Shown: one piece after another, positions 27,752 through 27,787 of the stretch
Numbering within the stretch: the first letter of the stretch is position 1
How the letters are laid out: every line of letters begins with the position of its first letter
DNA from: Escherichia coli
GTDB lineage: Bacteria > Pseudomonadota > Gammaproteobacteria > Enterobacterales > Enterobacteriaceae
Assembly (NCBI RefSeq): GCF_003790525.1
Contig: NZ_CP033634.1
Direction: 5' to 3' (one strand)
DNA length: 64,000 nt
Translations under genes and position numbers: made by a program
Notes under the pieces: model-generated
What the model saw: only the letters and a program-made list of their open reading frames with translations
Told to the model about the DNA's origin: nothing
Databases searched by the model: none

Positions 27752-27787
27752 CTGCTACTGCTACTGCTACTGCTACTGCTACTGCTC
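27752..27787. repeat. Hexanucleotide microsatellite (CTGCTA x5 plus CTGCTC) at the 5' edge of repeat copy 2
   Basis: ctgctactgctactgctactgctactgctactgctc; absent from copies 1 and 3; generates a spurious poly-Leu ORF (27572-27808). Confidence 0.9.

Follow-up and report, generated by a model that had tools for sequence, protein, structure and literature searches.

A hypervariable CTGCTA microsatellite at the border of a Frpo2-type element in the leading region of F-like conjugative plasmids

Tandem repeats near promoters are classical phase-variation devices, and short perfect repeats that change by whole units are used to type bacteria as VNTR or SSR loci (MLVA typing). The leading region of conjugative plasmids contains single-strand promoters of the Frpo/ssi class 1 type (Masai and Arai 1997), represented in plasmid F by Frpo1 and Frpo2. 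Both are required for early expression of leading genes from single-stranded DNA, and conjugation efficiency was unchanged when Frpo2 was deleted in F (Couturier et al. 2023, PMC9849209). A passage in PMC11541004, citing Masai and Arai 1997, states that transcription from Frpo is stimulated by SSB. In the recipient, synthesis of the complementary strand is stalled by the hairpin of another single-strand promoter of the leading region, ssp2 (bioRxiv 10.64898/2026.01.09.698686). Here we describe a hexanucleotide array that borders a Frpo2-type element. A full-text literature search for the repeat sequence found no published description of the tract, and we found no literature relevantly linking plasmid leading regions with microsatellites.

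The array is in the leading (first-transferred) region of an IncF-like or F-like conjugative plasmid. The window, that is, the whole stretch of 64,000 nucleotides of Escherichia coli DNA that was analysed, contains a nic-like motif (GTAGTGTGTGGTGCTTT) between an SLT-like gene on the minus strand and a traM-like ORF on the plus strand. The motif has two mismatches to the nic motif of F, and 0.01 matches were expected by chance. It is on the minus strand, indicating that the minus strand is the one transferred. Entry proceeds from approximately 35.9 kb toward lower coordinates, and the tract is approximately 8 kb behind the nick. In a megablast search, positions 26800-29200 matched more than 5000 plasmids, the majority of them conjugative (MOBF/MPF_F) and from Escherichia, Klebsiella, Salmonella, and Shigella. 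The order in these relatives is antirestriction, DUF1380, repeat copy 1, a small ORF, DUF3560, class I SAM methyltransferase, the tract with repeat copy 2, and ssb; after ssb come DUF905, a ParB-like gene and, further on, hok, repeat copy 3, and DUF932. The features of the window referred to below are:

24439-25101, no strand: Frpo-type repeat copy 1, without the hexamer array; the position of the tract reads GTTGTTGTTCCTTTATCTGCTGCTCTGATT
25583-26962, strand not given: DUF3560 gene (ORF list, Pfam)
27009-27572, plus strand: gene for a class I SAM-dependent methyltransferase of 187 aa (ORF; Pfam MTS PF05175, E 8.8e-8; RefSeq annotation of relatives)
27643-27676, no strand: GC-rich hairpin (inverted repeat) with 15-bp arms, 93% complementary, between the methyltransferase stop codon and the tract
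27700-27835, plus strand: pyrimidine-rich, A-poor, CTG-rich, cryptically simple spacer that holds the array, delimited by composition; purine-rich on the transferred strand
27736-27751, no strand: triplet run (GAT)2(GTT)3C, directly 5' of the array (sequence and allele counts)
27752-27786, no strand: microsatellite, CTGCTA on the plus strand, with five perfect units at 27752-27781 and then CTGCT(C)
27836-27978, no strand: GC-rich segment that separates the tract from the conserved Frpo core and contains several short hairpins; also present in copy 1
27979-28450, minus strand: Frpo2-type (class 1) single-strand promoter element (homology to F; DNA fold; Frpo2 as defined in PMC9849209)
28449-28976, plus strand: ssb gene, the first gene 3' of the Frpo2-type element (ORF; RefSeq start mapped from 7662-8189 of locus L001)
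33237-33764, no strand: Frpo-type repeat copy 3, at the Frpo1 position after hok, without the hexamer array; reads TTCTCTTTTTCTTCCTGCTCTGATT
35898-35914, minus strand: oriT nic-like motif

Other arrays are present elsewhere in the window. At 10408-10459 and 11472-11574, arrays of 8-bp units lie on both sides of a minus-strand two-gene cassette, with (AAGATAAC)x4.4 followed by inverted TGTTATCT copies on one side and (ATAACAAG)x6.9 on the other. The first gene of the cassette starts MIIVLGSQKGGVGKSTLAV, a deviant Walker A motif of the ParA type. Judging from its sequence, this cassette resembles a type I partition locus that has putative centromere or operator iterons on both sides.

The hexamer array is a genuine, non-random repeat. 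Tandem Repeats Finder reported (CTGCTA)x5.8 at 27752-27786, with a period of 6, 100% matches, and a score of 70. By direct reading, 27736-27800 is GATGATGTTGTTGTTC(CTGCTA)5CTGCTCTTCTTTTTCC, in which the variant sixth unit, CTGCTC, occupies 27782-27787; on the transferred strand the array is (TAGCAG)n. These results confirmed the description in the earlier note of five hexamer units plus one variant unit, the coordinates of which were correct within one base, and of a GTT triplet run before them, which is (GTT)3 at 27742-27750 preceded by (GAT)2 at 27736-27741. In 200 Markov-1 simulations of the 64-kb window, the longest perfect period-6 array had a mean length of 13.8 nt and a maximum of 17 nt. 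The real array (35 nt) is far beyond this maximum, and is thus not a product of chance.

The array is just inside the left edge of one of three repeated modules. The window contains three direct repeats (approximately 24439-25101, 27769-28430, and 33237-33764). At the equivalent position, copies 1 and 3 contain a shorter pyrimidine tract that lacks any CTGCTA unit, so the claim that the array is found only in the ssb-proximal copy held. Its placement at the edge of repeat copy 2 was essentially right: homology between copies 1 and 2 takes in approximately 25 nt on the left side of the tract (CTGATGTTGTTGTTCCT), which makes the array an expansion that lies barely within the left edge of the repeat module.

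The array is embedded in a compositionally simple spacer. The 136 nt of the spacer consist of 61 T, 35 C, 25 G, and 15 A, and Tandem Repeats Finder also gave a period-18 row at 27752-27821. The array is 180 nt past the methyltransferase stop codon and approximately 75 nt past the hairpin at 27643-27676; no T-run follows this hairpin, and its function as a terminator is only putative. On the other side, 70 nt of the GC-rich segment (27835-27904) are present in copies 1 and 2 and absent from copy 3, and F-type plasmids have an unrelated segment where the window has 27836-27978. An A-poor, T/C-rich stretch with 9-16 CTG precedes each of the three Frpo copies (27700-27835, 24400-24510, and 33150-33245). 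That all three copies, and F as well, retain a pyrimidine-rich, CTG-rich tract here may point to a constraint on length or composition, which would speak against neutrality, or to a decayed repeat.

The number of units varied widely among related plasmids. There are five units in the window, and direct reading of the array in ten plasmid loci (L001-L005 and L008-L012) gave 7, 14, 12, 1, 8, 10, 2, 9, 12, and 7, all in uninterrupted perfect arrays. We also searched metagenomes using the left flank plus 1.5 units as the query. There were at least 120 matching loci, and 87 contigs among the matches listed had a complete plasmid-type tract. Among these, the number of units ranged from 1 to 12 with a mode of 4-5 and a Nei diversity of 0.87, and again all arrays were perfect. 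The counts among the matches listed, for one to ten units and then for twelve, were 7, 12, 8, 17, 17, 6, 10, 4, 3, 1, and 2, with a query pattern that cannot detect an allele of zero units and with long arrays possibly under-represented in short-read assemblies. In evenly spaced samples of the BLAST matches that covered the whole query, the span differed from that of the window by -27 to +51 nt in PLSDB and by -21 to +70 nt in complete E. coli genomes, the +70 nt case being an odd variant, L007, described below. The adjacent GAT/ATG triplet is also a site of small indels (ATGATG versus ATG among relatives). All of the length changes were multiples of 3, because the units are 6 nt and 3 nt; this pattern is by itself compatible with a coding constraint too.

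The tract mutates much faster than the sequences around it. Plasmid pGZM7d (L010) had no SNPs relative to the window in 2401 flanking nt, yet it was longer by 24 nt (four extra units), and pMTY1886_IncFII (L001) had two SNPs and was longer by 12 nt (two extra units). More generally, haplotypes with identical flanks of 200 nt on both sides (400 nt in all) had up to four different alleles, for example 1, 2, 5, and 12 units, or 4, 7, and 14 units. The earlier note had proposed that the tract is prone to slipped-strand variation and might be a hypervariable site, and that an invariant number of units in all relatives would speak against this. Invariance is clearly contradicted by the comparison of related plasmids, and the range of 1-14 units together with the different alleles between identical flanks supports the proposal. 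A 12-kb BLAST search for a near-identical backbone gave a best match of only 96.7% identity because the region is mosaic.

One plasmid had an unusual form of the tract. In L007 (NZ_CP124518.1, pAVS0343-A; 7150-7300), three CTGCTA units are followed by a 10-nt insert (GGCCGTTAAT), approximately 16 GCTACY units, and a replaced right flank. The GCTACY units vary solely by T/C at two positions. This variant occurs once in PLSDB; all of the remaining 135 matches were ordinary (CTGCTA)n arrays at approximately 84%.

Plasmid F has a different repeat at the equivalent site. Upstream of Frpo2, F (NC_002483, approximately 58015-58061; L006 6016-6062) carries (TTCCTCTTC)x5.2, the length of which varies by -19 to +9 nt among relatives. 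The two repeats are alike in their position relative to the Frpo2 core and ssb, in having a pyrimidine-rich strand, and in their variability in length. They differ in that the repeat of F has a 9-nt unit, has no CTG, was less polymorphic in the sample examined, and has another left flank, because F is without the DUF3560-methyltransferase module there. The presence of a different length-variable repeat in F indicates that the site itself is slippage-prone and that no particular sequence is needed.

The array also marks a mosaic junction. Many BLAST matches end exactly at the array, and the (CTGCTA)n array is joined to two unrelated downstream segments, one 'R100-like' (as in the window) and the other 'F-like' (as in L005), each of which was found with the full range of alleles. 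By sequence comparison, the apparent junction is between the methyltransferase module and alternative segments upstream of Frpo. This pattern fits a slippage-prone, compositionally simple linker and not a sequence-specific functional element.

Based on the range of alleles, the identical flanks, and the comparison with F, we think it likely that the tract is a non-coding VNTR in a neutral or near-neutral spacer, with units gained and lost by slippage. The minimal allele, CCTGCTACTGTTC (1.5 units, L004), would supply a seed for the array, and whole CTGCTA units would then be gained or lost by slipped-strand mispairing during DNA synthesis. Expansion and contraction outpace point mutation by far, which would keep the arrays perfect. 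The spacer links the methyltransferase module with the module of the Frpo2-type single-strand promoter, approximately 8 kb from oriT. We infer that slippage is the mechanism, that the spacer is neutral or nearly so, and that the length of the tract has little or no effect on plasmid function; we found no evidence of a biological role for the tract.

The tract is outside the adjacent single-strand promoter element. Positions 27979-28450 are 94.3% identical over 473 nt to the F sequence that directly precedes ssb, with 89.6% identity to the second copy in F, placing this element among the Frpo sequences by homology. The homology to F begins at 27979, 190 nt past the tract. When the minus strand was folded as single-stranded DNA, a long imperfect hairpin of approximately 380 nt was predicted at approximately 28026-28402 (-194.9 kcal/mol, z = -16). 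The tract is approximately 240 nt upstream of this hairpin; the fold of the transferred strand leaves it unpaired or with weak pairing to itself (mean pair probability of approximately 0.3). Predicted folds with 0, 1, 3, 5, 8, 14, and 20 units did not differ in the base pairs of the hairpin or in their probabilities, and weak self-pairing of the array accounted for a shift in fold energy of only about 0.4 kcal/mol per unit. We therefore rejected structural coupling of the array to the hairpin.

These results bear on the possibility that the length of (TAGCAG)n is tuned, setting the distance to Frpo2, or the size of an SSB-coated landing space beside it, and thereby adjusting transcription of ssb and psiB or complementary-strand synthesis in the recipient. 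We consider this unlikely. It would account for the pyrimidine-rich tract that is kept upstream of the three Frpo copies and in F, and (TAGCAG)n is carried by the strand that enters the recipient in single-stranded form. It also draws on the stimulation of Frpo transcription by SSB stated in the passage of PMC11541004 that cites Masai and Arai 1997, and on the finding that single-strand promoter hairpins can stall conversion (bioRxiv 10.64898/2026.01.09.698686). However, the tract is upstream of the promoter and well away from the base of a hairpin whose predicted pairing does not respond to its length, and the number of units ranges freely from 1 to 14 in a broad distribution with no favoured length class. 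Furthermore, F without Frpo2 conjugates as efficiently as F with it (PMC9849209). The suggestion in the earlier note that the tract could modulate the adjacent element is thus unsupported: the tract is outside the hairpin, the fold is the same with 0-20 units, and no promoter overlaps the tract.

One relative has an arrangement that fits recombination between Frpo copies. In L009 (NZ_AP022364.1, pE309_IMP6; 7000-8200), the tract and a Frpo copy are directly before the ygeA-like and DUF932 genes and the ssb-to-hok segment is gone, the expected outcome of recombination between copies 2 and 3.

It is very unlikely that the units toggle a promoter as a contingency switch, or that 5'-CTG-3' serves as an array of DnaG or other protein sites on the non-transferred strand. 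The density of CTG at the tract is the highest in the 64-kb window (16 in the spacer compared to a window mean of 3.7 per 136 nt, with the window maximum of 17 at 27702), and the tract is near a promoter element, as in classical phase variation. However, a search for sigma-70-like promoters found no -35/-10-like pair in 27400-28500 on either strand, and a role in promoter spacing was rejected for this reason. Because there is no promoter-like site in this interval, the unit is 6 nt and unable to shift a reading frame, and the overlapping ORFs (below) are not conserved, the array is neither in a promoter spacer nor in an ORF with a unit that is not divisible by 3, the locations at which contingency repeats are found. 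The CTG triplets are on the plus strand, and priming in the recipient is needed on the other one; F, moreover, has the CTG-free TTCCTCTTC repeat instead of the array. For these reasons, priming by DnaG was rejected as the main reading of the CTG density. With regard to iterons and other protein-binding arrays, the number of units is unconstrained (1-14) and F has a different repeat at the equivalent site, which would argue against a putative binding array. There were no significant matches to Rfam families and no tRNAs.

The possibility that the array encodes part of a protein seems even more remote. A variable poly-Leu segment (frame A, or a mini-ORF from ATGATG) or an (Ala-Thr)n segment (frame B) would be part of a small membrane protein. 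In many plasmids, PGAP annotates two overlapping ORFs across the tract as hypothetical proteins:

27572-27808: frame A ORF, poly-Leu; its ATG overlaps the methyltransferase stop codon (ATGA)
27724-27978: frame B ORF, (Ala-Thr)n; starts at TTG

The overlap of the frame-A ATG with the stop codon, the preservation of frame by every indel in the tract, and the perfect (AT)n that L007 keeps despite its T/C changes would be expected of a coding repeat. However, neither the start nor the frame is conserved: of 72 relatives, 21 have AAG in place of the frame-A ATG, and in 17 of the 72 the number of nucleotides separating the methyltransferase stop from the tract differs by non-multiples of 3 (see, for example, L002 and L004). 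No Shine-Dalgarno-like motif was seen in the sequence before any candidate start, and neither ORF had a match in Pfam. Downstream in frame B, a comparison of the repeat copies and relatives revealed no third-position bias (two of seven substitutions were at third positions) and indels of 1, 2, and 70 nt. Stop-free reading frames are expected from the A-poor composition. The changes in L007, all of which are synonymous in one frame, were given no weight as a hint of coding because this variant is found only once in PLSDB. We conclude that both overlapping ORFs are almost certainly annotation artefacts. RefSeq/PGAP has a separate WP_ accession for each repeat-length allele of both hypothetical proteins, and these poly-Leu and Ala-Thr entries are probably spurious.

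Repeats are prone to mis-assembly, but the perfect arrays, whole-unit differences, and conserved flanks in approximately 100 independent complete plasmids and in short-read metagenome contigs effectively refute an artefact of sequencing or assembly, to which we give next to no credence.

In one speculative version of slippage, the purine-rich repeat of the transferred strand would change length mainly in the single-stranded phase of conjugation, such that the number of units would record or respond to the history of transfer and might tune SSB loading and the early expression of ssb and psiB. The tract would then be a conjugation-linked contingency spacer and not a passive VNTR. Pausing of the polymerase at the GC-rich hairpins or at the stable Frpo2 hairpin, just after the tract is copied, could then raise slippage during conjugation. 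We regard this version as improbable.

The variability of the tract could be of practical use. IncF plasmids are important vehicles for resistance and virulence genes, and in many cases they have backbones too alike to be separated. A locus with at least 12 alleles that differ between plasmids with identical flanks could sharpen the tracking of plasmids over short periods. The proposal in the earlier note that the site might be useful for typing is thus plausible, with the reservation that high mutability implies homoplasy; care is needed because the same allele will recur. There is also a caveat for annotation, in that the tract causes pipelines to emit many allele-specific 'hypothetical proteins' (poly-Leu and Ala-Thr).

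The tract is a new example of a familiar feature and otherwise an ordinary microsatellite, with short head-to-tail units beyond chance, polymorphism by whole units, and a rate of change above that of its flanks. In common with the VNTR and SSR loci used for MLVA typing, it has a short perfect unit, changes by whole units, has many alleles in near-identical sequences, and is intergenic; those loci are chromosomal, and the tract is instead in the leading region of a conjugative plasmid. Like the contingency-locus repeats of Haemophilus, Neisseria, and others, it is a hypermutable tandem repeat near a regulatory element. Unlike them, it is not between -35 and -10 sequences, is not in a conserved ORF, has a unit that cannot cause a frameshift, and has no evident target to be turned on or off. 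With respect to the Frpo/ssi class 1 promoters (Masai and Arai 1997; Frpo1 and Frpo2 of F), the tract is outside both the F-homologous region and the hairpin and is absent from the other two copies, and it lies at the upstream limit of a module with 94% identity to Frpo2 of F.
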